Shown piece by piece: positions 5,751 through 60,801 of a DNA stretch of 64,000 nucleotides. The first letter of the stretch is position 1, and each line of letters begins with the position of its first letter. The stretch is from the NCBI GenBank assembly GCA_013202715.1, contig JABMRF010000040.1, forward strand, positions 4,376 to 68,375, written 5' to 3'. The translations under genes were made by a program, and so were the position numbers. The stretch comes from Candidatus Kuenenbacteria bacterium (GTDB taxonomy: Bacteria; Patescibacteriota; Patescibacteriia; UBA11705; JABHMO01). The notes below the pieces were generated by a model. That model did no database searches and was not told the DNA's origin. It was given only the letters and a program-made list of their open reading frames with translations.

Positions 5751-7604
5751 TTATTCTAAAATAGCTTTAATCCTTCTCACACCTGCTGAGCTGGATTCTT
5801 CTTTTTTGATTCGGAACTTACCAAGCTCTCCAGTTTTTTGGGCATGCGGTCCGCCACACATTTCACAAGACACGTTTCCAATTGTGAAAACTTTTGCAAC
5901 GTGACCATACTTGTCTTCAAACAATCCAATTGCTCCTTTTTTCTTCGCATCATCAACTGCCATTTCCGCACAGCCAACTTCAAGATCATCTTTGATCCAA
6001 CCATTAACTAATTCTTCAACTTCTTTTTTTTGTTCGTCAGTCATTTTATCTAGATGTGTAAAATCAAATCGCAATCGGTCAGCGGTAATATTGCTACCCT
6101 TTTGCAGTGCATGAGGGCCAAGAACTTTTTGTAATGCGGCCTGGAGTAAGTGAGTTGCTGTGTGAAGTTTACAAGTTTCTTCCGATGCGTCAGCCAGTCC
6201 GCCTTTGAATCTTTGACCAGCGCCTTCTCGCGAAAGAGCCTGATGTTTTTCAAACTCAGCATCAAATTCTTTTTTGTCAAATTTAATTCCTTTTTCTTCT
6301 GCCAACTCTTCGGTCATTTCATATGGAAAACCATAAGTTGAAAACAAATCAAACGCTTCAGTTCCGGAAATATTATTGTCCTTGGACATTTTTTTGAACT
6401 CACGCAATCCTTTTTCCAGAGTTGTGGCAAATTTTTCTTCTTCTTTTGTTAATTGTTTCAAAATAAAATCTTTATTCTTCTTGAGTTCAGGATAAGTGTC
6501 CTGCATTATTTTAATAACAACTTCGGCAACCTTGTGAGTAAACACGCCTTCAATTCCAATTTGCTTGCCGTGCCTGATTGCTCTTCTAATTAAACGTCGC
6601 AAAATATATCCCTGGTCAACATTTGACGGTTCAATCCCCTTTTCATCACCAAGAATAAAAGTGGCAGCGCGAACGTGATCTACTATTACTCGAATTGATT
6701 TTTTTTCTTTTTCATAATTTGGATCATCTTTTTTTCCGTAAATGTCTGTATTGTCTACTCCTTCTTGACCAAGATATTTATATTTTCGGAGCATGTTAAC
6801 TTCTGCCACAATCGGTTCAATGTGCGGGCAATGATAATTATCAGGAAAGTCATTCAAAACTGAAACTGTTCTTTCCAATCCCATACCCGTATCCACGTTC
6901 CTCTGCTTCGCTTTTACATATTCATATTCTACTTTATCTGATTGGCTCTTGACTTTTGACTCTTGACTCTTGACTTTATTATATTCCATAAATACGTCGT
7001 TCCAAATCTCAACGTATTTACCACAACTGCAACTTGGCTGGCAGTCTTTGCCGCAAGCTTTTTTATCGGAAATATAAAACATTTCTGAGTCCGGTCCGCA
7101 TGGTCCTGTTTTTCCAGCCGGGCCCCACCAGTTTTCTTTTTTATTATATTTATAAATACGATCCTCGGGCATGCCAAGAGATTTCCAAGTATTGTAACTT
7201 TCTTCGTCAAAGGGAGCATCGTCGTCACCTTTAAAAACGGTCACAGCCAATCTGTCCAAAGGAATATCCAAAACATTTGTTAAAAATTCATAGCTCATTT
7301 CAATTGCTTCTTTCTTCCAGTAGTCGCCAAGTGACCAATTGCCCAGCATTTCAAAACAAGTAAAATGCCATTGATCTCCGACATCATCAATATCGCCAGT
7401 TCGAATACATTTTTGGAAATCAACCAATCGCGTTCCGGCTGGATGCTTTTCGCCCAATAAATATGGGACAAGAGGATGCATTCCGGCAGTTGTAAAAAGA
7501 CAGGTTGGATCATTTTCTGGAATCAAAGAAGCAGAAGGGATTATGGCGTGGCCCTTGTCTTTGAAAAAATTTAGGAATTTTTCACGAAGTTCGTGTGCGT
7601 GCAT
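5751..7604 (-). CDS. alaS: alanyl-tRNA synthetase (short form with catalytic and editing domains, no C-Ala domain)
   Basis: N-terminal class II AlaRS motifs (FTTAGMHPLVPY, WHFTCFEML), editing HxxxH...CGGPH; 617 aa. Confidence 0.85.
   Translation of the reverse strand: MHAHELREKFLNFFKDKGHAIIPSASLIPENDPTCLFTTAGMHPLVPYLLGEKHPAGTRLVDFQKCIRTGDIDDVGDQWHFTCFEMLGNWSLGDYWKKEAIEMSYEFLTNVLDIPLDRLAVTVFKGDDDAPFDEESYNTWKSLGMPEDRIYKYNKKENWWGPAGKTGPCGPDSEMFYISDKKACGKDCQPSCSCGKYVEIWNDVFMEYNKVKSQESKVKSQSDKVEYEYVKAKQRNVDTGMGLERTVSVLNDFPDNYHCPHIEPIVAEVNMLRKYKYLGQEGVDNTDIYGKKDDPNYEKEKKSIRVIVDHVRAATFILGDEKGIEPSNVDQGYILRRLIRRAIRHGKQIGIEGVFTHKVAEVVIKIMQDTYPELKKNKDFILKQLTKEEEKFATTLEKGLREFKKMSKDNNISGTEAFDLFSTYGFPYEMTEELAEEKGIKFDKKEFDAEFEKHQALSREGAGQRFKGGLADASEETCKLHTATHLLQAALQKVLGPHALQKGSNITADRLRFDFTHLDKMTDEQKKEVEELVNGWIKDDLEVGCAEMAVDDAKKKGAIGLFEDKYGHVAKVFTIGNVSCEMCGGPHAQKTGELGKFRIKKEESSSAGVRRIKAILE
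6946..6976. repeat. AGTCNNN heptamer tandem array inside alaS (in-frame, encodes KSQESKVKSQ-like insertion)
   Basis: ctcttgacttttgactcttgactcttgactt seen directly. Confidence 0.8.
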
Positions 7605-7611
7605 AGAGTTA

Positions 7612-7688
7612 AGTCTTGAGTCTAGAGTCTAGAGTCAATAGTCGGTAAAATAACTCTAGACTTTTGACTCTTGACTTTTGACTTGTAG
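7612..7688. repeat. two inverted arrays of AGTCNNN/TCTAGAC-type heptamers upstream of alaS
   Basis: agtcttgagtctagagtctagagtcaatagtc ... ctctagacttttgactcttgacttttgacttg. Confidence 0.8.
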
Positions 7689-9293: not shown

Positions 9294-10400
9294 TTATTCA
9301 ATTTCACCGCCCCCTAAACATTCATCTCCATTATAAAAAACACAATACTGGCCGGAGGTAATGGCTCGCTGGGGTTTTGGAAATTTCACCAGAAATTTGT
9401 TTGAAGAACGATTGTCAGGCGAACTTCCGGAAGTTCGCCTGACAATCTGACAATTTACATTTTCAGATCGATATCGGATTCGGCATTCGCATTTAAATGG
9501 CAATGTTGGAGCCGTGCCGGAAATCCAATTAACTTTTTTAACTATTAATTCTTTGGCTAAAATATCATCTTCGTTTTTACTCACCCAGAGGGTATTATTT
9601 TTTTTATCCAATCGAGAAACATACCACGGACCATCGGCAAGGCCAATCCCCTTTCTTTGCCCAATTGTGTACATTGGTAAACCGTCATGCTGGCCAAGGA
9701 TTTTACTGTCAGGCGCGACGCCTTCTCGAATAGGCCCTTTTTCAAATTTGATATATCTTTTCAAAAATTCACCCACCTTTCCATCCGCTACAAAACAAAT
9801 TTCCTGTGATTCTTTTTTGCTGGCAGTTGACAGTCCATGTTTCTTGGCCAATTTTCGAACTTGTTCTTTTGTATAATTTCCAACTGGGAACATAACATGA
9901 GCCAGATCCTTTTGCTTGATCTGATGAAGGAAATATGACTGGTCTTTGTTTTTGTCCCGTCCCACGCGTAGGGAACGGTCGCGACCGTTCCCTACGCGAG
10001 CGAAATGCCCGGTCGCGACAAAATCAACGCCCATTGGTTTTAATTTTTTCCACAACTCACCAAATTTGATATATTGATTGCAACGCACACATGGATTTGG
10101 TGTACGACCACACTCATATTCATTAACAAAATTATCTACAATTTTTTCCTTGAACGGAGCCTTCATATCAATCACATAAAACGGAATTCCGAGCTTATTG
10201 CAAACCCGGCGGGCATCTTCTGCAGATTCCAGCGAACAGCAAATGTTTTCACGAATTTTGCCCTTGATATTCTCATTCCAGAATTTCATAAAAACACCAA
10301 TGACTTCATAGCCTTGTTCTTTTAATAATACTGCGGCAACTGACGAATCCACTCCGCCGGACATGCCGACGGCCACCTTTAATTGTTTGTTTTTATTCAT
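9294..10400 (-). CDS. mnmA: tRNA-specific 2-thiouridylase MnmA
   Basis: PP-loop VGMSGGVDSS, ...NPCVRCN..., ...KDQSYFL; TATAAT 6 nt upstream of ATG and no SD. Confidence 0.9.
   Translation of the reverse strand: MNKNKQLKVAVGMSGGVDSSVAAVLLKEQGYEVIGVFMKFWNENIKGKIRENICCSLESAEDARRVCNKLGIPFYVIDMKAPFKEKIVDNFVNEYECGRTPNPCVRCNQYIKFGELWKKLKPMGVDFVATGHFARVGNGRDRSLRVGRDKNKDQSYFLHQIKQKDLAHVMFPVGNYTKEQVRKLAKKHGLSTASKKESQEICFVADGKVGEFLKRYIKFEKGPIREGVAPDSKILGQHDGLPMYTIGQRKGIGLADGPWYVSRLDKKNNTLWVSKNEDDILAKELIVKKVNWISGTAPTLPFKCECRIRYRSENVNCQIVRRTSGSSPDNRSSNKFLVKFPKPQRAITSGQYCVFYNGDECLGGGEIE
9965..9998. repeat. 34-bp perfect GC-rich palindrome inside the mnmA coding sequence
   Basis: cgcgtagggaacggtcg|cgaccgttccctacgcg; reverse complement identical. 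Confidence 0.9.
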
Positions 10401-10450
10401 AAATTCATTATATCAAAAAAAACGCCTTTTGCGTCTTTTTTTATATCATA

Positions 10451-10816
10451 CTATCCAGCTTTCTTCAAGGTCACCATCACCTCCGGCACATATTTGTTAT
10501 CTTTGTCATCAACAACTTCAACTTTATTATTTTTCATCAGCTCATTCCACATTAGATCTGACAAAACTTGCTTGGTGTCTTTTATATCCATTTTCAAATC
10601 ATCCAAGTCGTTGAATTCAGAGGCATAATCTCCTCGAATCGCGACTTCAATTTGTTTTTTCTTAGCTTTCAAGGAATTCATTTCATCTAAAATATCCTGA
10701 TATTCTTTTGTCTGGTCATAAGCTTCCTTGACAACTACTTTGATTTCTTTTTGTTTAGCTTTTGCATCCTGGATTTCCAAGTGCAAATCTGTAATTCTTT
10801 GTGCATTGTCGGACAT
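10451..10816 (-). CDS. hypothetical coiled-coil protein (121 aa)
   Basis: charged, heptad-like composition. Confidence 0.5.
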   Translation of the reverse strand: MSDNAQRITDLHLEIQDAKAKQKEIKVVVKEAYDQTKEYQDILDEMNSLKAKKKQIEVAIRGDYASEFNDLDDLKMDIKDTKQVLSDLMWNELMKNNKVEVVDDKDNKYVPEVMVTLKKAG

Positions 10817-10923
10817 ATATAATAGGGCGAAAGAAGGCGAAAGAAGATAACCTTGCCTTCATAACTTTATTATTAAATACAAAATTAAGTATAACAAACA
10901 TTCCCTTAATTAACAATTGTGGA

Positions 10924-18946: not shown

Positions 18947-18952
18947 AAACTA

Positions 18953-18990
18953 CCGCAGATTATGCGGATCTAACGCGGATTTGGCGGACT
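18953..18990. repeat. ATCCGCG-family repeat cluster (copy a), contains GCGGATCTAACGC
   Basis: ccgcagattatgcggatctaacgcggatttggcggact. Confidence 0.8.
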
Positions 18991-19377
18991 TTACTGCAAC
19001 GTCCAGCTTTTTTCATGGACCCTGCGTACAATCTCAAGGTTCTTTGCGCCAAAATTCACAATAAATCCTAACTTATATTCTGATGTTGTTAAATATTGAT
19101 ATAATTTCTTTATAAATACTTCAGGGATAAACAATACTGATTTAAATTCAACAATAATTTTTCCGAATGGTACAAAATCTGGCTTATAATAACCTACAAC
19201 TTTTCCCTCCATCATTAAATGAAGTGTTTTTTCTCGTTCGTATAATATACTTTCCCTTTTCAATAATTCTTCAAACGCATTCCCATAAACTTTTTCTTTA
19301 TGACCTGGCCCAAGTGTATTGTAAATTTCCATCCATAAACCGCGGAGTATATATGATGATTCATCTTCATAAATCAA
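18991..19377 (-). CDS. GxxExxY-family protein (PD-(D/E)xK-like)
   Basis: ...TLGPGHKEKVYGNAFEELL... EREKTL... GYYKPDFV... LGFIVNFG pattern typical of the family; TTG start. Confidence 0.65.
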   Translation of the reverse strand: MIYEDESSYILRGLWMEIYNTLGPGHKEKVYGNAFEELLKRESILYEREKTLHLMMEGKVVGYYKPDFVPFGKIIVEFKSVLFIPEVFIKKLYQYLTTSEYKLGFIVNFGAKNLEIVRRVHEKSWTLQ

Positions 19378-19431
19378 TGGCTATCCATCTTTCGTTATTA
19401 TTCCCATATACACGTCACTTTTAATTCCGTT

Positions 19432-19492
19432 TTATCCGCCGTTCGGCCACGAGCTCACGGCCGAGTGGCGTTAGATCCGCTTTATCCGCGCC
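19432..19492. repeat. ATCCGCG-family repeat cluster (copy b), contains GCGTTAGATCCGC, inverted relative to copy a
   Basis: tttatccgccgttcgg...ggcgttagatccgctttatccgcgcc. Confidence 0.8.
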
Positions 19493-19493
19493 A

Positions 19494-23782: not shown

Positions 23783-23829
23783 ACTTTTAACTTTTACATT
23801 TTACATTTTACCTTTTACCTTTTACCTTC
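23783..23829. repeat. GGTAAAA-family heptamer tandem array (7 units) spanning the recJ stop and rnhA start
   Basis: cttttaacttttacattttacattttaccttttaccttttacc. Confidence 0.85.
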
Positions 23830-35968: not shown

Positions 35969-35975
35969 ATACTTA

Positions 35976-36068
35976 TAAATTAGAAATTAGAAACTTGAAA
36001 CTAGGGTTAAGACTGGATTTTACATCCATTATTCCTACCCTAATTTCCAATTTCCAGTTTCCAGTTTC
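35976..36068. repeat. inverted pair of heptamer arrays (AAATTAG/AAACTTG vs GGAAATT/GGAAACT) in a divergent promoter region
   Basis: aaattagaaattagaaacttgaaactag ... ctaatttccaatttccagtttccagtttc. Confidence 0.75.
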
Positions 36069-36868: not shown

Positions 36869-36872
36869 CAGC

Positions 36873-36903
36873 CCTTGCAACCAAGGAGCTGTTTTTTGTT
36901 CGG
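36873..36903 (+). terminator. rho-independent terminator
   Basis: acagcccttg-caac-caaggagctgt plus T6. Confidence 0.65.
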
Positions 36904-36999
36904 AACTAGACGTAAAAAATCAATAAATCAACAAACCAATAAAACAAATTCGGGGATTCTTATCTTTATGATTTCTTTTTTTCTTGTTTTTTTGTTTTC

Positions 37000-40323: not shown

Positions 40324-40944
40324 TCAAGATTTCAAACTTTCATAATGTTTTTTTCGTTCCTGTTCTGTGATAATTTTCATGAATTTTTCGTTCTCAATAT
40401 CTTCTCCCCATTTTTTTATATTGTTTTTAATGTATTTGCGGATTGATTGCAATTCATGTTCGTTGCGGATAATGCGATCGTAAAAATTTCTTTTCCAACG
40501 ATAATATCCAAATTTATCATGATTCACACACCATTTACGGACGCCAATTTTATAACCACGCACAATTGAACCCAATGATTTGGGGATTATATGCTGATAT
40601 TTGTTCTTAAAAACTCCCGAATGTAAGGGTTCAAAATCTTGAACCCTTACATTCGGATCCTGTTTATTATCAGAACAAATACGAATAATCCCATGCACAT
40701 GATTTGGCATCACCACATATTCCCACAATTGTGCATTTGGATAATGTTTTGGGATTTCTAACCAACATTTATTGGTAACGTTCCCAATCTCCGACAACCT
40801 CATTTCCCCATCAACAATTTTCCCAAAATCATGGTGCCCACGTTCCTTGGCGCAAATTGTTACAAAATAAAACCCCGACTGTGCATAATCAAATCCTGGC
40901 AATCGGATTGATTGACGATTATGGATATCGGGATTATAAATCAT
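40324..40944 (-). CDS. REP-associated tyrosine transposase (RAYT / IS200-like Y1 HUH transposase)
   Basis: HUH motif VVMPNHVHGII, catalytic region SIVRGYK, C-terminal WKRNFYDRII...IRKYI; start set at MIYNPDIH. Confidence 0.8.
   Translation of the reverse strand: MIYNPDIHNRQSIRLPGFDYAQSGFYFVTICAKERGHHDFGKIVDGEMRLSEIGNVTNKCWLEIPKHYPNAQLWEYVVMPNHVHGIIRICSDNKQDPNVRVQDFEPLHSGVFKNKYQHIIPKSLGSIVRGYKIGVRKWCVNHDKFGYYRWKRNFYDRIIRNEHELQSIRKYIKNNIKKWGEDIENEKFMKIITEQERKKHYESLKS
40617..40656. repeat. REP-like 18-4-18 perfect palindrome embedded in-frame in the RAYT gene
   Basis: ccgaatgtaagggttcaa-aatc-ttgaacccttacattcgg; encodes DPNVRVQDFEPLHSG. Confidence 0.85.
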
Positions 40945-40970
40945 AATAAATTCCGTAATGCAGCGCAGAT

Positions 40971-41010
40971 ATTTGTGTAAGGGTTCAAGATTTTGAACCC
41001 TTACACAAAT
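40971..41010. repeat. REP-like 18-4-18 perfect palindrome between the glyQS stop and the RAYT start
   Basis: atttgtgtaagggttcaa-gatt-ttgaacccttacacaaat; core GTAAGGGTTCAA shared with the internal copy. Confidence 0.85.
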
Positions 41011-41026
41011 ATCTGCATCCCTGTTT

Positions 41027-42420: not shown

Positions 42421-42518
42421 CCGCGGATTTAACGGATCAAATGCGGATAATGCGGAATTTACTAACTCGTTTCCCTTTATATCCGACAAATCCACGTTAA
42501 ATCCGCAGTATCCACGTA
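42421..42518. repeat. ATCCGCG/ATCCACG-family repeat cluster (copy c), units on both strands
   Basis: ccgcggatttaacggatcaaatgcggataatgcggaattt ... atccgacaaatccacgttaaatccgcagtatccacgt. Confidence 0.8.
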
Positions 42519-42571: not shown

Positions 42572-43504
42572 TTACATATAATCTGCATCAAGTTTCTCCA
42601 AATCACCAATACTTCTCTCTGAAAATCCCTTTACCCTGCTTTTGCCATCGCCACTATAATACCAAATACTACCACTTTTTAGTTGATGCTTTGCAAGACT
42701 ATCCACAATACTACCATCTTCTCTGGCTGAATCATCATACTCCTCTTCAAGTGTTCTTAGCAAAGTTCCATCCTCTCTGTACGTAAACTTCGTAATTTTA
42801 TCAACGGTCCCATCAGGACGATATAATTTTTCTACAGCCGGACTTCCCTGACCATCAAACTTAACCATCTTTTCTTCCCCATCATCACCAAACTCTGACC
42901 TAGAAATCACTACTTCTTGACCATCTACAACTTCCAAAGCCTCTGAACTCACAACCTTACCAGATTCATCATAAGCAATTACAGATTTCCTAAATGGTTT
43001 ATCATATTTTGTTTTTCCAACTAATTTCCATAACCCAGAAGTCATACTCTGTTCGCTCCGTTTGTGATCAGCCCCAACAACTCGACCAGCTTCATCCCGA
43101 ATAATATCAATTACATAATCCTTACTACGTATTTCATGTTGATCAGCACCTGCATTCTGATACTCAAAATGAGTCTTTTCCAAATCAAAAACCAAACTCT
43201 CCTTTCCAGCTTTTTTTACAGTTTCAGATTTTCTCATCTGCATTGGATCCGGTCTTTCCCTAACCAATTGTCTCATTACAATTTCTTCATTTCTTTCAGC
43301 TAATTGTTCAGGAGATATCACAATTTTTTCCTCGTCCATTGCCTGCAATTCAGTAACAGCAGCTTCAAGTGCCACCGATGTTTCTTTGTCTATCTGTGCT
43401 TTTGTCTCTGCACCTTTGGCTAAATCATCTTCAGTTAATGGTACAGTTTTAATTCCCTCTCTCTTTCCTTTATTAATCTTTTCCAAAGTAAGTTTTTCAT
43501 TCAT
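42572..43504 (-). CDS. hypothetical protein with degenerate YD/YwqK-like repeats in the C-terminal half
   Basis: repeating Y(D/R)xDG(T/K) units (VIAYDESGKVV, LYRPDGTVDKI, TYREDGTLL, WYYSGDGKS). Confidence 0.5.
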   Translation of the reverse strand: MNEKLTLEKINKGKREGIKTVPLTEDDLAKGAETKAQIDKETSVALEAAVTELQAMDEEKIVISPEQLAERNEEIVMRQLVRERPDPMQMRKSETVKKAGKESLVFDLEKTHFEYQNAGADQHEIRSKDYVIDIIRDEAGRVVGADHKRSEQSMTSGLWKLVGKTKYDKPFRKSVIAYDESGKVVSSEALEVVDGQEVVISRSEFGDDGEEKMVKFDGQGSPAVEKLYRPDGTVDKITKFTYREDGTLLRTLEEEYDDSAREDGSIVDSLAKHQLKSGSIWYYSGDGKSRVKGFSERSIGDLEKLDADYM

Positions 43505-43528: not shown

Positions 43529-44086
43529 TTATACTGACATTATTTCCTTTTCCTTACTCTCTGCAATCGATTGCAAGTCTTTGTTCAATTCGCCAACCTT
43601 TTCATCCAAATCTTTCACATATTTATACTTGTCATCCTCAGTAATGTCACTGCTTTTTTCTGCACTTACAATTTCTTCCTTAGTCTTCTCTCGAATTGAT
43701 CGAACTGAAATTTTAGCTGCTTCCAGCTTTTCATTCATAGTTTTCACCAAATCCTTCCGATTTTCTTCAGTCATTTGAGGCACACTTAGACGAACCAAAG
43801 TACTTTCGACCGAGATCGATAATCCTAAATCTGCATAAGTAAGAGCCTTTTCAATTTCTTTGAGCAAATTTTTGTCCCACGGATCAACTGTCATGGATCG
43901 GGCCTCAGGTACAGCAATACTACCCAGCTGAACAATCGGGGTTTTGATTCCATACGCATCAACCAGGACATTTTCAATCATGGCCGGATTGGCTCGACCG
44001 GCTCGAATAGTAGCTAGTTCTTTTTTAAAATGCTCAAGTGTTTTATTAAATTCCTCCTCGTGTTTTTCAATGAATTCATTGCTCAT
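43529..44086 (-). CDS. frr: ribosome recycling factor
   Basis: RRF family sequence throughout; TATTAT 6 nt before ATG. Confidence 0.9.
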   Translation of the reverse strand: MSNEFIEKHEEEFNKTLEHFKKELATIRAGRANPAMIENVLVDAYGIKTPIVQLGSIAVPEARSMTVDPWDKNLLKEIEKALTYADLGLSISVESTLVRLSVPQMTEENRKDLVKTMNEKLEAAKISVRSIREKTKEEIVSAEKSSDITEDDKYKYVKDLDEKVGELNKDLQSIAESKEKEIMSV

Positions 44087-44098
44087 ATTAATATAATA

Positions 44099-44176
44099 CG
44101 TGATCAACGTGATTTACTACTGATCTACATGAGATATCCATCAGTAGATCATGTAGAAAATCAGTAGATCATGTAT
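44099..44176. repeat. ~80-bp palindromic repeat element (family shared with 59181-59267)
   Basis: acgtgatcaacgtgatttactactgatctacatga...atcagtagatcatgtagaaaatcagtagatcatgta. Confidence 0.8.
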
Positions 44177-44199
44177 TCCTTTATATTCTTTTTAAAAAC

Positions 44200-45264
44200 C
44201 TACTGTGTAATTGTTTTCACACCAACGAAAATATTATTTCCTTTTTCAGGATGAACTGCAATTTCTCCTGCAATCCTCGCTGTTGGCATTTTCTTGACAA
44301 CCCAATTTTCGCCACCGTCCAGGGTTTTGTAAATCGCTTTATCGGTACTGTAATAAACATGGCTAGCGCTACTCGGATCAATGTCCAGAGAATAAATCCG
44401 CTCTTCGCTTGGCTGAGTTAATAATTTAACTTCTGACCAAGTTGTTCCACCGTCTAAACTTTTTAGCATGCCAAATTTATTCGCATATAAAACTAAATTC
44501 TTCTGACTCTTGGAAACGACAAAGTCAAAATAAATTTTAGAACTACTAAAATCCTTCATCTGCTTATTCAGATCCTCCCATTTATCACCTTTATCTACTG
44601 TTTTATAAAGTCCTCCGTTCATAATTCCTGCGTAAAGAACCCTACTGTCATTAGGGTCAACGATAATTTTAACTACGCGATTGGGAAATTTATTTGACAA
44701 CTTCCAGCTCACTCCATAATCTGAACTCTTTAACAAAGACCCATCTGATAAACCGGCGTAAACAATATTTGAATCAAACCAATCATGACCAAGCGAGCTG
44801 ACATAAACTCCAGCTTTATCGGCCATGAAGACGCGTTCCCAATTTCTGGTGCAGTCTTCACTTCTGTACACCTTACTGCCAACTGCAGCATACGACGTAC
44901 ATTTATCTTTGGAATCAATAACTAAATCGCGAATAAATCCCTCTGGTAAATTTTTCGACTTTGTCCAACCATTTCCACCAGTATATGAATAATACAAACC
45001 ATTTGCTTTTGTTCCTAAATAAATCGCGCTTGAATCACTTGGATCAAAACGTATAAAATAGGCGTTAACATCACCGATTGTACCCGGAGTATCACTTGGA
45101 GTCATTAATTTTGAACGATGGCTCCAATTTTCAAATCGGTCATCAGTAAAAAATACGCCGCCAAGATTTGTGGTTGTTGTTGTTTTCTTATTTAAAGTGA
45201 TACAACCCGTAGCTCCGAAAAGAAGTACGAGCAAAACCAGGACAACTGAAAATTTTCTCAACAT
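44200..45264 (-). CDS. BNR/Asp-box repeat beta-propeller lipoprotein (Ycf48-like fold)
   Basis: lipobox LFGATGC; SxDxGxTW motifs (SSDYGVSW, TVDKGDKW, SLDGGTTW, TLDGGENW). Confidence 0.7.
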   Translation of the reverse strand: MLRKFSVVLVLLVLLFGATGCITLNKKTTTTTNLGGVFFTDDRFENWSHRSKLMTPSDTPGTIGDVNAYFIRFDPSDSSAIYLGTKANGLYYSYTGGNGWTKSKNLPEGFIRDLVIDSKDKCTSYAAVGSKVYRSEDCTRNWERVFMADKAGVYVSSLGHDWFDSNIVYAGLSDGSLLKSSDYGVSWKLSNKFPNRVVKIIVDPNDSRVLYAGIMNGGLYKTVDKGDKWEDLNKQMKDFSSSKIYFDFVVSKSQKNLVLYANKFGMLKSLDGGTTWSEVKLLTQPSEERIYSLDIDPSSASHVYYSTDKAIYKTLDGGENWVVKKMPTARIAGEIAVHPEKGNNIFVGVKTITQ

Positions 45265-46345: not shown

Positions 46346-46388
46346 ATGGTTATTATAGCAAATATTAATTTTTCAGTAAAATAGGAAA

Positions 46389-46432
46389 GTAATTGGGTAA
46401 TTGGGTAATTGGGTAATTGGGTAATTGGTAGT
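46389..46432. repeat. GGGTAATT octamer tandem array (5 units)
   Basis: gtaattgggtaattgggtaattgggtaattgggtaattgg. Confidence 0.9.
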
Positions 46433-46444
46433 AATTACAATCAA

Positions 46445-52470: not shown

Positions 52471-52503
52471 CCTTAAATACTTTTAACTTTTACATTTTAC
52501 CTT
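52471..52503. repeat. GGTAAAA-family heptamer array immediately upstream of cysS
   Basis: cttttaacttttacattttaccttttaacttt. Confidence 0.8.
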
Positions 52504-52579
52504 TTAACTTTATTTTTCGCAAGCCCCACCTTTCAACTCCGCTACGCTTCGCTCAAGACGTTACTTTTTCCTTTTATTT

Positions 52580-54369: not shown

Positions 54370-54409
54370 ATCCGCGTCAATCCGCGTTAGATCCGCGTTT
54401 ATCCGCGTT
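54368..54409. repeat. ATCCGCG-family tandem repeats (copy d): four units at 10-11 bp period between convergent genes
   Basis: ttatccgcgtcaatccgcgttagatccgcgtttatccgcgtt. Confidence 0.9.
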
Positions 54410-55504
54410 CTATTCAAAATCCTCTAAAAGTTTCCTCTGCTTCCGACTAAGTTTTTTCGGCACCGCCACTTCAATAACAACATACATATCGCCTCGAGTG
54501 GAACCGTGAAGCTGCGGCATGCCTTTTCCTTTCAACCTAAACTTGGTCCCGGGCTGAGTTCCTGCTGGAATTTTCAAACTAACTTCAGATTCAAGAGTTC
54601 CCACATCAATCTCGCCACCGAGCGCAGCCTCAACAAATGAAATATTATTCTGCATGTAAATATCTTTTCCATGACGCTGAAAAACTTTATCAGATCTAAT
54701 CCGGACACGCACATAAAGATCTCCAGCTTCGCCTCCAAATGGAGCAGCATTTCCTTTTCCGGTCAGGCGAAGGGTAGAGCCATCTTCGATTCCAGCTGGA
54801 ATTTCAATATTAATTTTTTCTTTTTTCTTGGTAACTCCCTGGCCTGAACATTTGGAACACGGGGTTTCTGCTTTTTTTCCACTACCGTGACAATCTGTGC
54901 AAGTTGAACTGCTTTGAAATGCGCCGAGCATCGTTTGCTGAACTCGAGTGACACGTCCCTGACCATTGCAGGTCGAGCAAGCATTGATAGGAGTTCCAGG
55001 TTCCGCCATATTACCGTGACAATGTTCACATTTTACAGTTTTATACAATTCAACTTCTTTTTTGATTCCATTAATAACATCTTTTAATCCAATTTCAAAA
55101 TCAACCTGAATATCTTCGCCACCGCCTCGGCTTCGCCCATTTCTTCCACCGCCAAAACCAAACATGTCGCCAAATATATCGCCAAGGTCAAGTCCGCCGA
55201 AGTCAAACTTTGCTCCGTTTGCACCGCCACCTCCGCCTCTAGCTTGGCTCATAAAATCGCTCCAGTTCATCCCCCCACCAAATCCACCCATTTGGTCAAA
55301 TGAAGATCCAAACTGGTCATACTGTTTTCGTTTTTCCGGCTTGCCAAGGACCTGGTAGGCCTCATTAATTTCTTTAAACTTAGCTTCATCACCAGTTTCT
55401 TTGTCAGGATGGTACTTATGAGCCAGTTTACGAAAAGCACGCTTGATCTCGTCTTGATCAGCGCCTTTTTCTACGTTTAATATTTTATAATAATCTTTAG
55501 ACAT
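54410..55504 (-). CDS. dnaJ: chaperone DnaJ
   Basis: J-domain HPD (KYHPDK), G/F-rich region, four CxxCxGxG zinc-finger repeats. Confidence 0.9.
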   Translation of the reverse strand: MSKDYYKILNVEKGADQDEIKRAFRKLAHKYHPDKETGDEAKFKEINEAYQVLGKPEKRKQYDQFGSSFDQMGGFGGGMNWSDFMSQARGGGGGANGAKFDFGGLDLGDIFGDMFGFGGGRNGRSRGGGEDIQVDFEIGLKDVINGIKKEVELYKTVKCEHCHGNMAEPGTPINACSTCNGQGRVTRVQQTMLGAFQSSSTCTDCHGSGKKAETPCSKCSGQGVTKKKEKINIEIPAGIEDGSTLRLTGKGNAAPFGGEAGDLYVRVRIRSDKVFQRHGKDIYMQNNISFVEAALGGEIDVGTLESEVSLKIPAGTQPGTKFRLKGKGMPQLHGSTRGDMYVVIEVAVPKKLSRKQRKLLEDFE

Positions 55505-55557
55505 AAGGGAAATAAGGCGGAATAAGGCGAAAGAGGATAACTCTCGACTTCCTGTTA

Positions 55558-55983: not shown

Positions 55984-56079
55984 AAATGAATACTGATGAT
56001 ACTGATATACTGATTAAGAGAAATTTGATTTAGGATAACAATAAATTACGTAAAATTAGCAAAAACCGTTACCAACCTA

Positions 56080-56153: not shown

Positions 56154-56217
56154 GGCAGCTATGCCAGGGACGTATGTGCCCATAATAGCAAAGGACAAAA
56201 CATGAATCTGATCAACA
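56154..56217 (+). repeat. duplicated 5' block, copy 1 (leader plus first codons MNLINK)
   Basis: ggcagctatgccagggacgtatgtgcccataatagcaaaggac...ATGaatctgatca identical to 56539-56602. Confidence 0.9.
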
Positions 56218-56456
56218 AGGCCTGGAACGTGACCGTGACCTACAACACCAAGCTGGCAATCAGCTGGGGCGTTTTCGCCCTGTTCCTCATCTGTGCCTCG
56301 ATCTGCATCCCGCCTGCGATCGCTCTGATCGAGGAGGGAGTGTATCACTCGAGGAGCTTCGTCACCGAAACGGTATTCGCCTACACCGCCACGGCGGGGT
56401 TGGTCAGCACCTTCGCCGATTGGCGCTACAAGCTCATCTTCTTCAATCGCAGCTAG
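56202..56456 (+). CDS. small 2-TM membrane protein (84 aa), GC-rich
   Basis: ATG 56202 after AAGGA; two hydrophobic helices; GC about 58%. Confidence 0.55.
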   Translation: MNLINKAWNVTVTYNTKLAISWGVFALFLICASICIPPAIALIEEGVYHSRSFVTETVFAYTATAGLVSTFADWRYKLIFFNRS

Positions 56457-56538: not shown

Positions 56539-56602
56539 GGCAGCTATGCCAGGGACGTATGTGCCCATAATAGCAAAGGACCAAAAATGAATCTGATCAG
56601 CA
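56539..56602 (+). repeat. duplicated 5' block, copy 2 (leader plus first codons MNLISK)
   Basis: 43-nt perfect identity to copy 1 plus identical first 13 coding nt. Confidence 0.9.
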
Positions 56603-57156
56603 AAGTCTGGGACAGGACCTTCAAGATGGCAGTCGTGTTTTGCTTGGTGTTGTTCGCGATCGCGATCACCGGCTGCGATTTCGGAGGAGACGATACTCCG
56701 GAAGAAACCACCATGGAAGCGACACAGTCGCAAGGAGAAGTGCTCGAGGAAACGGTAGTCTCGGAAACAGAGCTCTATGTGTCCGTCATGGGATGCTTCC
56801 CGGTGCCCCAGTCGGACTTCGAGAACGGCATCAAGCCGGACTGGACCGGTACGATTTCCTACATCACACCCAATCCCGAAATGACGAGTACAAAAGTCAT
56901 CACGATCACCGACATTCCGGTAACCCTGGGAGGATGCTTCGTCACCCTCTACGTGCCACTGAAGGACATCGAACTCGGGTTCTGGATCAACACCTCCGAG
57001 GGGTGGGAGAACTCCCAAAGCCCCTATCTTGCAGAGGTCCGATTCCTCACGACCACTTACGGTCAAGAGGGCAATCAGATCGAAACTCGAAAGGTCAATA
57101 TCGGAGAAGAAGAATCTGCCGGCTTCCCTATCTGGGATGCCAACACCTACCAGTAA
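56587..57156 (+). CDS. lipoprotein (189 aa), GC-rich
   Basis: signal peptide plus lipobox AITGC; terminator downstream. Confidence 0.6.
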   Translation: MNLISKVWDRTFKMAVVFCLVLFAIAITGCDFGGDDTPEETTMEATQSQGEVLEETVVSETELYVSVMGCFPVPQSDFENGIKPDWTGTISYITPNPEMTSTKVITITDIPVTLGGCFVTLYVPLKDIELGFWINTSEGWENSQSPYLAEVRFLTTTYGQEGNQIETRKVNIGEEESAGFPIWDANTYQ

Positions 57157-57229: not shown

Positions 57230-59161
57230 TTATTTCTTTTCTTCGAAGTCAGCATCCTGCGTATTCGAATCATCATCAGCTTTTTTTTCTTCAGTTTCAT
57301 TACTATCGCCTTTATCTCCTGTTTCCCCTGCTTCTCCTGTCTTCCCTTGTTCCGCCGCCTGTGCCTTGTACATTTCTTCCCCAGCCTTCATCGCAATCTT
57401 ATTAATCTCTTCCAATTTCGCTTTGATCGCTTCTGTATCTTCTCCGTCTTTAATTTTTTTAAGCTCTTCGACTTTTTCAGTTAGATCTTTTTTGATATCT
57501 TCTGAAATTTTATCACCGGACTCTTTCATCATTTTTTCTGTTGTATAACAAACTGAATCAGCCTGATTTTTAATTTCAATCGCGTCTTTCTTTTTCTTGT
57601 CTTCATCAGCATGTTCCTCAGCATCCTTTTTCATTTTTTCAATTTCTTCTTTACTTAAACCGGACGAAGCGGTAATTGTAATTGCCTGTTCTTTATTGGT
57701 AGCTTTATCTTTGGCTTTAACGTTCATAATACCGTTGGCATCAATATCAAAACTAACCTCAACTTGCGGTACGCCGCGTGGCGCTGGTGGAATTCCGTCA
57801 AGAATAAAACGACCCAAGGTTTTGTTTCCCTCAGACATCTCACGCTCACCCTGAAGCACGTGAATTTCAACTGTGTTCTGATTATCAGCTGCAGTTGAAA
57901 AGACTTGTGACTTTGAAGCTGGGATAGTCGTATTTTTTTCAATAAGTTTTGTCATCACACCACCCAGAGTTTCAATTCCGACTGAAAGTGGAGTTACGTC
58001 AAGTAATAGAACGTCTTTAACATCACCCTGTAAAACACCGGCTTGAACTGCGGCGCCGGAAGCAACAACTTCGTCAGGATTAACGCCAACGTGCGGTTTT
58101 TTTCCGAAGAATTCTTCCACTTTTTTTAATACCAATGGCATACGGGTCATTCCCCCAACCATGATAATTTCCTCAATATCTTCAACTTTGAATCCAGCAT
58201 CAGCTAAAGCTTTTTTACATGGTTCAAGTGTTTTATCAACTAAAGGAGTAACTAATTCTTCAAGTTTTGCCCGAGTCATTTTTTTAACTAAATGAACAGG
58301 ATTACCTGAAGGATCCTGAGCAACAAACGGTTGATTAATTTCAGTTTCCTGCGCAGTTGATAATTCAATCTTTGCTTTTTCCGCAGCTTCTTTAACTCGC
58401 TGTAAAGCCATTTGATCTCCACTTAAGTCGACACCGGTTTCAGTTTTAAATTCTTTAATTATCCAGTCGATGATTACTTTATCAAAATCATCACCACCAA
58501 GATGGGTATCGCCATTAGTGGATTTAACTTCAACGGTATCTTCGCCAACATCTAAAATTGAAATATCAAAAGTACCGCCACCCAAATCATAAACTGCGAT
58601 CTGTTCCCCTTTTTTCTTATCAAATCCGTAAGCTAGGGCCGCAGCAGTTGGTTCATTAATAATTCGACGAACTTTTAGTCCGGCAATTTCACCGGCATCT
58701 TTTGTGGCTTGTCTTTGTGCATCGTTAAAATAGGCTGGCACAGTAATTACAACTTCATCAATTTTCTCACCAATTTTTTCTTCCGCATCTGCTTTCATTT
58801 TTTGAAGTAGCATTGCTGAAATCTCTTGCGGAGTATATTCTTTATCCGCCATTTTGACTTTGACGCCATCACCTGATTCAACCAATTCATAAGGTAATGT
58901 TTCTTTGTCTTTTTGAACTTCGTCATCTGAATAACTGAGCCCAATCAATCTTTTGATTGAAAAAACTGTGTCTTTTGGATTAGTTACTGCTTGCCGCTTT
59001 GCAGGCAATCCTACCAATCGCTCACCGGTCTTGCCAATCGCAATTACTGACGGAGTTGTTCGGCTCCCCTCTTTATTTTCTAAAATTTTTGGCTTCCCTC
59101 CCTCAACAATTGCCATGCAACTGTTTGTTGTTCCTAAATCAATCCCGAGTATCTTTGACAT
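57230..59161 (-). CDS. dnaK: chaperone DnaK (Hsp70)
   Basis: [19 protein letters not shown], full Hsp70 architecture. Confidence 0.95.
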
Positions 59162-59180
59162 ATTTACTATTTGTTAATAA

Positions 59181-59267
59181 TACATGATCCACTGATCTTC
59201 TACATGATCTACTGATAAACACTTAATAAATCATGTGGATCAGTAGCAAATCACGTAGATCAAGTAT
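59181..59267. repeat. ~85-bp palindromic repeat element (same family as 44099-44176, inverse orientation)
   Basis: tacatgatccactgatcttctacatgatctactgat...atcatgtggatcagtagcaaatcacgtagatcaagta. Confidence 0.8.
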
Positions 59268-59289
59268 TAAAACGTAATTCTTATAAATG

Positions 59290-59436
59290 TTATTTATTTG
59301 TATTAATTTCTTTGTCATTATTTTCCTCATCAACACTGTCTAATCGTCCGACACTAGAGGCAATTCCCTTTAATGTACCGGCCAGCCAAATAGATATGAT
59401 AAGTAGTATCTTTCTAATAATTTTAGGTAATTTCAT
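59290..59436 (-). CDS. possible small secreted/hydrophobic peptide (48 aa) translationally coupled to grpE
   Basis: ATG 1 nt after grpE TAA; MKLPKIIRKILLIISIWLAGTLKG... signal-like; below the ORF-track size cutoff. Confidence 0.3.
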   Translation of the reverse strand: MKLPKIIRKILLIISIWLAGTLKGIASSVGRLDSVDEENNDKEINTNK

Positions 59437-60688: not shown

Positions 60689-60693
60689 ATGAA

Positions 60694-60740
60694 ATCATTT
60701 TAACACACCTCTTAGCACTCGTCAAGAGGGACTGCCAGTT
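60694..60740 (-). promoter_or_regulatory. hrcA promoter (TTGACG-17-TAAAAT, 8 nt before ATG) overlapping a partial CIRCE-like inverted repeat
   Basis: TTAGCACTC-N9-GACTGCCAG on plus strand (left half perfect CIRCE, right half 6/9). Confidence 0.5.
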
Positions 60741-60763
60741 GTTTTTTAGAATAAAAAAAGACG

Positions 60764-60792
60764 CGATTTCGTAGTTACGAAATCGCGTTGTG
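60764..60792 (-). terminator. rho-independent terminator
   Basis: 13-bp stem acgcgatttcgta/tacgaaatcgcgt then T-run on minus strand. Confidence 0.75.
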
Positions 60793-60801
60793 TTGTTTTC
60801 T

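Follow-up and report, generated by a model that had tools for sequence, protein, structure and literature searches.

Two near-identical imperfect palindromes of ~85 nt precede frr and dnaK in a 64,000-nt stretch of contig JABMRF010000040.1 (hereafter the window) from an uncultivated Patescibacteria bacterium, and the question raised by this locus is what one element is doing in front of these two genes. Patescibacteria (the candidate phyla radiation, CPR) have tiny genomes with few recognisable regulators, and to our knowledge almost nothing is known of how they control gene expression. We find that the element is one instance of a clade-wide class of intergenic repeats and not a special link between frr and dnaK. 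Our tentative reading, held with somewhat less than even confidence, is that it is a fold-back repeat resembling REPINs and miniature inverted-repeat transposable elements (MITEs), transcribed within an operon, in which the hairpin is the constrained feature and the role is likely post-transcriptional.

A preliminary description of this DNA had reported reverse-complement copies of a single element upstream of the two genes, and both segments are present there. The 16-mer TACATGATCYACTGAT occurs exactly four times in the window, twice in each segment, and once more with three mismatches; these five matches at three or fewer mismatches compare with 0.67 in shuffled sequences, and none of 100 shuffles reached five. 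The arms are 92% identical between the frr and dnaK copies, and the longest match between the copies spans 38 nt at 95%. The − strand of the frr copy matches the + strand of the dnaK copy, and both genes lie on the − strand, so the copies are reverse complements on the chromosome, as had been described, and take opposite orientations relative to frr and dnaK.

Read on the − strand, the frr copy starts with AATACATGATCTACTGAT. In the left arm, TACATGATCYACTGAT occurs twice with a period of 20 nt, and each unit is itself composed of TAC(N)TGATC sub-units of 9-11 nt; TGATC-like cores recur at 9, 11 and 9 bp on each arm. The earlier picture of repeated (T/C)ACTGAT units arranged as inverted halves holds only in part, since the right arm is not an exact complement of the left; it carries ATCATGTRGATCAGTA and ATCACGTWGATCAMGTA, an asymmetry common to both copies. 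The loops cannot be aligned with each other and their lengths change the arm-to-arm distance by 7 nt (Table 1). Because the imperfections of the arms are shared, the copies arose by descent and not as independent inventions: the two descend from one sequence. Terminal inverted repeats are present, since the element is imperfectly palindromic over its full length and ends in AATAC...GTATT. No consistent target-site duplication was found at either copy (flanks GA/TA at frr and TA/TA at dnaK), nor any repetitive extragenic palindromic (REP) palindrome within an arm; each arm is two direct 16-mers, and folding gives arm-to-arm pairing only.

With limits that include the terminal AATAC/GTATT, the frr copy lies 22 nt past the stop codon of the upstream BNR-repeat gene and 8 nt short of the frr ATG, and the dnaK copy lies 21 nt past the stop codon of a small conserved open reading frame (ORF) and 17 nt short of the dnaK ATG; with the narrower limits used earlier the distances to the ATG are 12 and 19-20 nt. 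It had been supposed that these are the places where the promoters of frr and dnaK must be. On the gene strand, neither spacer contains a promoter-like or terminator-like site, and the same promoter scan recovered, as a positive control, the strong extended −10 promoters of holB and hrcA. These are the nearest upstream promoter matches for the holB-BNR-frr unit and for hrcA-grpE-small ORF-dnaK, respectively. Since the two spacers lack promoter and terminator and promoters are found upstream at holB and hrcA, both elements are most simply intercistronic, in holB-BNR-frr-... and in hrcA-grpE-small ORF-dnaK, and the supposed promoter position is not borne out. The absence of a Shine-Dalgarno sequence at frr and dnaK says little, because only ~13 of the 64 window genes have one and its lack is the norm in this genome.

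Whichever strand is folded, each copy gives one hairpin with ~33-40 pairs (z −4.3 to −7.2). The start codon and the preceding 8-17 nt lie outside the hairpin at both genes and are predicted to be unpaired. Nine arm positions are unpaired, and of the six differences that separate the arms of the two copies four are located there (binomial P = 0.0025, in a test designed post hoc on these six substitutions only); of the remaining two, one changes a U-A pair to U·G and one breaks a pair. The concentration of differences on unpaired positions suggests that pairing is the property conserved. No Rfam family matched at its gathering score, with chance-level matches only at E values up to 1.

Comparison of the same two sites in relatives gave a similar picture of conserved architecture in changing sequence. 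The next relatives are Falkowbacteria-like, at 71-80% identity in Frr and GrpE. Synteny around frr and dnaK is conserved in them, including the order GT4-holB-BNR-frr-glyS, and the spacer sequences are not: the element itself is absent from both sites, where unrelated fold-back or tandem arrays stand in its place. The frr spacer holds two perfect hairpins in L003/L004, a fold-back of CAAGCAAGA/CGAGACC units in genome C (L005-L007), a fold-back of CGTGAT units in L016, AATTGGG direct repeats only in genome B (L010/L011), and in L015 just 21 nt with no element. A hairpin thus precedes frr in four of six species. Upstream of dnaK, one long hairpin is present in all six species, ending 6-17 nt before the ATG and drawn from four unrelated sequence families, namely TACATGATC in the window, GGAAACT in B, C and L097, GGTTGAT in L014 and ATCTTGTA in L099. 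The minimum free energies of these dnaK-upstream hairpins range from −18.6 to −37.8 kcal/mol, with z between −4.1 and −5.6 in four species and of only −1.6 and −2.4 in C and L097. By a crude count, a strong long hairpin occurs in ~3 of 24 co-directional spacers of the window, or about one in eight. Homology of the CGTGAT array of L016 with the ACGTGAT units of the frr copy was considered and is suggestive only (11 bits with R1, a covariance model of the element).

The window itself carries a GGAAACT/AATTTCC-unit fold-back at 35973-36068 (−34.8 kcal/mol, z −5.9). It stops ~14 nt short of the ATG of a gene for phosphate propanoyltransferase (PTAC) and is 72-75% identical to the dnaK-upstream hairpins of B, C and L097. 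Because the GGAAACT type precedes dnaK in relatives and the phosphate propanoyltransferase gene in the window, repeat families move between sites.

Evidence for selection comes from genome C and L097, a sister pair. Their dnaK-upstream spacers are 91.2% identical (83 of 91 nt), compared with 66.5% at third codon positions of grpE and 72.4% at those of dnaK. None of the eight spacer substitutions breaks pairing on the sense strand, and two change pairs to or from G·U. As a control, the hrcA-upstream spacer of the same pair retains only the promoter and the core of the heat-shock operator CIRCE (controlling inverted repeat of chaperone expression), the rest being unalignable. Hairpin identity between B and C is 71%, higher than the 57% seen at third positions or the 57.5 ± 5% obtained after shuffling. 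Judged from these substitution patterns, the GGAAACT-type fold-back before dnaK in C and L097 is under purifying selection. Covariation within the GGAAACT-type family was set aside as a test, as four sequences with only two doubly changed pairs are too few.

Searches for further copies were made with nhmmer using one arm and with model R1. No third copy was found in the window, where the best R1 matches after the two copies reach at most 20 bits and are generic hairpins, and the single arm and R1 found no copy in ten loci from relatives. In all, ~100 loci from relatives or controls yielded no further copy. Two copies were therefore seen in 64 kb; REPIN/REP-RAYT systems number tens to hundreds of copies per genome. 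The junction pattern GATCYACTGATNNNNTACATGATC had no match in genome contigs or viral contigs and one in metagenome contigs, at L001 806-853 directly upstream of a clpP-like gene, which we treat as chance because it covers part of one arm only in unrelated DNA of higher GC content. A blastn search against phages and plasmids returned nothing significant. A Logan contig from another run, L002, starts inside the element, and its first 3,000 nt match the window exactly. Elements and arrays are identical in independent samples of each species, and for this reason the arrays are taken to be real and stable within species. A DnaA-box cluster was rejected, since TTATCCACA-like boxes number 22 against 18 ± 4 expected; the dnaK copy contains one such box, with one mismatch, and the frr copy contains none. 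A Dam/GATC role was likewise rejected, with sites at the expected frequency genome-wide (243 against ~240).

The element belongs to a wider class. In a Tandem Repeats Finder census of arrays with a period of 6-12 nt and at least 2.9 copies, the window has 2.10 arrays per kb of spacer and seven loci of close relatives have 2.46, against 0.18 in other Patescibacteria, 0.27 in Chloroflexi and 0.17 in other taxa; the controls include distant taxa from a CysS scan of genome contigs (at most 61% identity). Coding DNA holds 0.04-0.2 arrays per kb. Short-period arrays are thus enriched ~10-fold in the spacers of this clade, where spacers carry arrays of 7-20-nt units that are often followed by their own inverted complement. 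At least eight unit families are present in the 64-kb window, and the arrays turn over between species though stable within them. They include TTCGCC-type arrays before dnaJ and before the gene at 10451-10816, CATCAGTAT x3 before an NYN-domain gene and CTTTTAC-type arrays at three sites of the window. A role of the arrays as Shine-Dalgarno replacement was examined and was not significant, given that so few of the genes have a Shine-Dalgarno sequence at all.

The GCGGAT/GTGGAT-unit fold-back at 42421-42508 (−36.8 kcal/mol) ends 8 nt before the glyS ATG, and its opening bases (TAATACGTGGAT...) are similar to those with which the frr element begins on the + strand (TAATACGTGATC...). A TTGACTC x4.9 array related to the fold-back before alaS lies inside the alaS reading frame at 6942-6975.

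Table 1. Positions of the two copies, the surrounding genes and promoters, and other repeat arrays in the 64-kb window
Feature	Coordinates	Strand	Remarks
frr copy, fold-back element	44095..44177	-	83 nt; 102 bits with covariance model R1
frr copy, left arm	44141..44177	-	Two TACATGATCTACTGAT units, 20-nt period
frr copy, loop	44133..44140	-	8 nt; unalignable with dnaK-copy loop
frr copy, right arm	44095..44132	-	TCATGTAGATCAGTAG-TAA-ATCACGTTGATCACGTATT
dnaK copy, fold-back element	59179..59268	+	90 nt; 111 bits with covariance model R1
dnaK copy, left arm	59179..59215	+	36/38 nt as in frr left arm
dnaK copy, loop	59216..59230	+	15 nt
dnaK copy, right arm	59231..59268	+	35/39 nt as in frr right arm
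frr, ribosome recycling factor	43529..44086	-	185 aa, starts MSNEF; no Shine-Dalgarno sequence
dnaK	57230..59161	-	643 aa; no Shine-Dalgarno sequence
BNR/Sortilin-like gene	44200..45264	-	Upstream of frr; no terminator before frr
Small conserved ORF	59290..59436	-	48 aa, ...LAGTLKGIASSVGRLDSVDE...; between grpE and dnaK
holB promoter	46352..46380	-	TTTACT-17-TGCTATAAT, 6 nt before ATG (leaderless)
hrcA promoter	60697..60738	-	TTGACG-17-TGTTAAAAT; overlapped by CIRCE-like site 60712-60738
RayT-family (IS200-like, HUH) transposase-like gene	40324..40944	-	3 kb from frr copy
GCGGAT-type arrays	18947-18990, 19378-19493, 42421-42508, 54370-54409		
AATTACCC x5			Directly upstream of holB −35
GAGTCTA/GACTCTT-unit fold-back	7604-7684		Ends 6 nt before alaS ATG
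ACGCGGAT x4	54370-54409		Right after dnaJ stop, convergent spacer
Further short-unit arrays	55503-55532, 10826-10846, 55990-56014, 23784-23828, 52479-52511		

The explanation that we tentatively prefer would run as follows. A small species-specific fold-back repeat family with REPIN/MITE architecture would have been copied, in either orientation, into two intercistronic spacers of this Kuenenbacteria/Falkowbacteria-like genome. Having no promoter of its own, it would be transcribed within the holB-BNR-frr and hrcA-grpE-small ORF-dnaK operons, and the transcript would form an imperfect ~35-bp hairpin followed by a short A/U-rich linker, free of a Shine-Dalgarno sequence, that leads to the start codon. 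Constraint appears to act on base pairing and not on a binding motif common to other genomes. The hairpin may then serve as a processing or segmental stability determinant that separates the downstream from the upstream cistron and leaves the start region unstructured. There are precedents for a role of this kind. Correia elements of Neisseria are co-transcribed, bound or cut by RNase III, and alter expression of the adjacent gene (PMC2649163); action of RNase III on the element described here would be by analogy. In the Bacillus dnaK operon, segmental mRNA decay occurs: cleavage detaches the hrcA segment, which is degraded faster (PMC3446304).

Several results weigh against this explanation. 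The evidence for selection was obtained on another sequence family, that of a sister lineage, and not on the window element itself, and the arm-difference test is small and post hoc. Template-switching self-correction of palindromes could keep the arms paired without any function. The empty 21-nt spacer of L015 and the direct repeats of B indicate that a hairpin before frr is dispensable, and arrays also occur in convergent 3'-3' spacers (54370-54409 and 36869-36999), so arrays of this class need not stand before start codons. For the frr copy the antisense strand gives the better fold (−37.8 against −33.5 for sense), for the dnaK copy the sense strand does, and over ten hairpins the sense strand was better in five and worse in five. 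A sense-strand G·U bias was dropped as evidence for RNA, being inconsistent. The data therefore point only weakly to an RNA form specifically, and since the sense-strand advantage is inconsistent we infer, rather than observe, transcription through the element and a role at the mRNA level, as we do the mechanism of copying. What fits is a single-stranded form, either RNA or single-stranded DNA, because the hairpin is the only constant while loop length (~12-25 nt in the GGAAACT family), orientation and sequence all vary.

The strongest competing explanation, which we regard as doubtful though a serious contender, is that these repeats are purely selfish or neutral DNA. They would arise by slippage and template switching, or by hairpin-dependent single-strand mobilisation of the RayT/IS200 type, and the palindrome would be kept by self-correction. 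Fast turnover between species at both sites, the empty-like frr site of L015, the many unrelated unit families with arrays in 3'-3' spacers as well, and the absence of a sense-strand bias all agree with such an origin. So do the RayT-family gene of the window, which is inserted relative to a relative's genome, and the inverted GCGGAT arrays around an inserted GxxExxY gene. Against it, the dnaK hairpin of the sister pair is far more conserved than synonymous sites while a neighbouring non-functional spacer is unalignable, and hairpins precede dnaK in every species compared with roughly one in eight spacers generally. In addition, the substitutions between the two window copies avoid paired positions, and the palindromes belonging to the RayT-like gene show no relation to the element.

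The RayT-like gene gives matches below cutoff to NCBIfam REP_Tyr_transpos (E = 1.7e-7) and Pfam Y1_Tnp (E = 8.5e-4), and it has 4,132 homologues, several of them named RayT by the Joint Genome Institute (JGI). Comparison with genome B shows it as an insertion separating glyS from a PNPOx gene. It is immediately preceded by a perfect hairpin of 24 bp (40965-41016), whose core recurs in a perfect 18-bp palindrome within the gene (40617-40656) that encodes the conserved motif VRVQDFEPLH. Because the palindrome flanking the gene, TGTAAGGGTTCAA-N4-TTGAACCCTTACA, and the one within it are unrelated to the frr/dnaK element (at most 20 bits with R1), they give no direct link between RayT and the element.

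Two other loci bear on how arrays may relate to insertions. The inverted GCGGAT arrays at 18947-18990 and 19378-19493 share the exact 13-nt complement GCGGATCTAACGC and flank a gene of 128 aa of the GxxExxY / PDDEXK_3 nuclease family (18991-19377), between pilM and a pilN-like gene; gene and arrays together look like a small insertion bounded by arrays. In L099, inverted arrays (CATAGAGCATGGAGCATAGAACATGG... and ...ATGCTCTATG) flank ~400 nt between hrcA and grpE (9540-10000), a stretch that by eye, from its translation, resembles a decayed ORF of four-helix-bundle type. These loci hint that array arms can behave as ends of small insertions.

A more specific proposal, which we consider unlikely but worth stating, is that the fold-back arrays of this clade are an undescribed mRNA leader device placed before internal start codons and acting as a processing or docking signal. 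Its context would be a genome whose first cistrons are leaderless and whose genes, in ~80% of cases, have no Shine-Dalgarno sequence, with hairpin sequence varying and architecture kept. Ribosomes might start on internal cistrons by one of two routes: cleavage of the RNase III type could leave a fresh 5' end that is nearly leaderless, or the hairpin could offer a platform to a protein resembling S1 or Csp. New hairpins would keep arising from a mechanism that generates or mobilises repeats.

The preliminary description had also offered a shared operator for a common regulator. In this explanation, the phased TGATC sub-units would be double-stranded sites for a regulator or nucleoid protein co-controlling frr and dnaK. 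The spacing of the cores is about one helical turn, sequence and not pairing alone is conserved between the copies, and arrays of direct repeats only are found near promoters, such as AATTACCC x5 before the holB −35 and ACGCGAAAC before the hrcA promoter in L014. However, the arm-to-arm distance differs between copies, the orientation to the genes is flipped and no promoter lies nearby to be regulated. The orthologous spacers of relatives carry unrelated units, so that no regulon is conserved; the number of unit families in 64 kb would require too many regulators for such a genome; the other families have 7-8-nt periods without helical phasing; and neither DnaA boxes nor GATC sites are enriched. 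We therefore judge a shared operator improbable.

A MITE carrying a promoter, also suggested previously, is less probable again. Here an outward −10-like GTATTAT at the ends would drive leaderless or short-leader transcription of frr and dnaK, much as Correia elements make promoters at their ends (PMC2649163). The genome does use leaderless or near-leaderless promoters whose extended −10 ends 6-8 nt before the ATG, at holB (46346-46444), at hrcA (60689-60801) and in the spacer 10401-10450, where a third such gene reads TGATATAAT-GAATTT-ATG, and the geometry at frr, TATTAT-ATTAAT-ATG, matches leaderless spacing. The element nevertheless has neither a −35 nor a TG extension, unlike every clear promoter of the window, and the promoter scan was empty in both spacers. 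At dnaK, TATTAT stands 15 nt from the ATG, a different spacing; in relatives, no −10 keeps a constant place among the bases that immediately precede the ATG; and a target-site duplication is lacking. Finally, a heat-shock RNA thermometer for dnaK, although a long imperfect hairpin with periodic mismatches does stand directly before a heat-shock gene, is scarcely credible when prediction leaves the start codon and the bases before it unpaired, frr has the same element in front of it, the GGAAACT-type dnaK hairpin of relatives precedes the phosphate propanoyltransferase gene in the window, and no Rfam family matches.

Among known systems, REPINs and their RAYT transposases (PMC3116915, PMC3337134) have the closest architecture. 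Both consist of two inverted arms around a less conserved spacer that form one long hairpin; in REPINs, too, the arms are conserved and the spacers are not (PMC3116915). Both are intergenic, occur in either orientation, lack a target-site duplication and preserve pairing, and a RayT-family gene is present in the same 64 kb. The element differs in that its arms are tandem 16-mers and not self-complementary REPs, that two copies were seen, that the RayT-like gene is flanked by an unrelated palindrome and that many unrelated families coexist. The suggestion of a MITE-like insertion holds in part: the element was copied with shared imperfections, is palindromic, occurs in either orientation and faces an almost empty frr spacer in L015, but the missing duplication, the two copies and the unrelated RayT palindrome do not fit.

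The Correia/NEMIS elements of Neisseria (PMC2649163) are likewise MITE-sized palindromes in spacers just upstream of genes. Compared with them, the element lacks the TA duplication, the conserved core, the integration host factor (IHF) site and the promoter hexamers at the ends, and its arms are internally repetitive. The class as a whole resembles the TAACTGA heptamers of marine Beggiatoaceae (PMC4679880) and the STRR-type heptamers of Nostoc (bioRxiv 10.1101/2022.06.06.494920), which are short tandem units enriched in spacers and ending a few nt before start codons without a Shine-Dalgarno sequence, upstream of genes that include essential housekeeping genes with no common function, as here. 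The element ends 8 and 17 nt from starts of this kind, a weak indication given how few genes of the window have a Shine-Dalgarno sequence. In those systems one dominant heptamer in fixed orientation forms direct repeats only, whereas here many families of 7-20-nt units are commonly folded back and orientation is not fixed. The CIRCE/HrcA operator is an inverted repeat in the same heat-shock operon, and its TTAGCACTC-N9-GAGTGCTAA occurs once, at the hrcA promoter, where the CIRCE-like site noted previously is real (three mismatches, the single match in the window); the fold-back element has no similarity to it. Full-text literature searches, which were not exhaustive, returned no description of such elements in Patescibacteria.

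Other observations were made around the two copies. In L014, the closest relative by GrpE, the hrcA promoter (40-140) has a perfect CIRCE overlapping the −35, with ACGCGAAAC-type direct repeats upstream of the promoter; in the window, the left arm of CIRCE is decayed and holds the three mismatches. The 48-aa product of the small ORF before dnaK has a hydrophobic N-terminus (...LAGTLKGIASSVGRLDSVDEENNDKEINTNK), and homologues occupy the same place in L012 (3539-3676), L097 and L098 and are absent in relative B. Between frr and glyS, a 310-aa ORF with no Pfam or NCBIfam match (42572-43504, − strand) is missing from B and C, where frr adjoins glyS. An 81-nt direct repeat, 90% identical, marks the starts of two neighbouring lipoprotein-like ORFs on the + strand (56154-56234 and 56539-56619), and by eye the regions ~56.1-57.2 kb and 60.8-62.2 kb appear to have higher G+C and long overlapping ORFs on both strands.

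Taken together, the two copies make up a family of their own within a variant of intergenic repeats that is specific to this clade and had not been described before; the hairpin appears to be constrained, and the function of the element is most likely post-transcriptional, though unproven. Hairpins of this clade often stand directly before the Shine-Dalgarno-less starts of core genes, among them dnaK, frr, glyS and alaS. For annotation, this counsels caution against reading such elements as operators of a shared regulon. If the repeats are selfish, genomes regarded as streamlined would turn out to contain a new population of miniature repeats. If the hairpins act on mRNA, they would constitute a major and easily recognised layer of post-transcriptional control in an uncultivated phylum.

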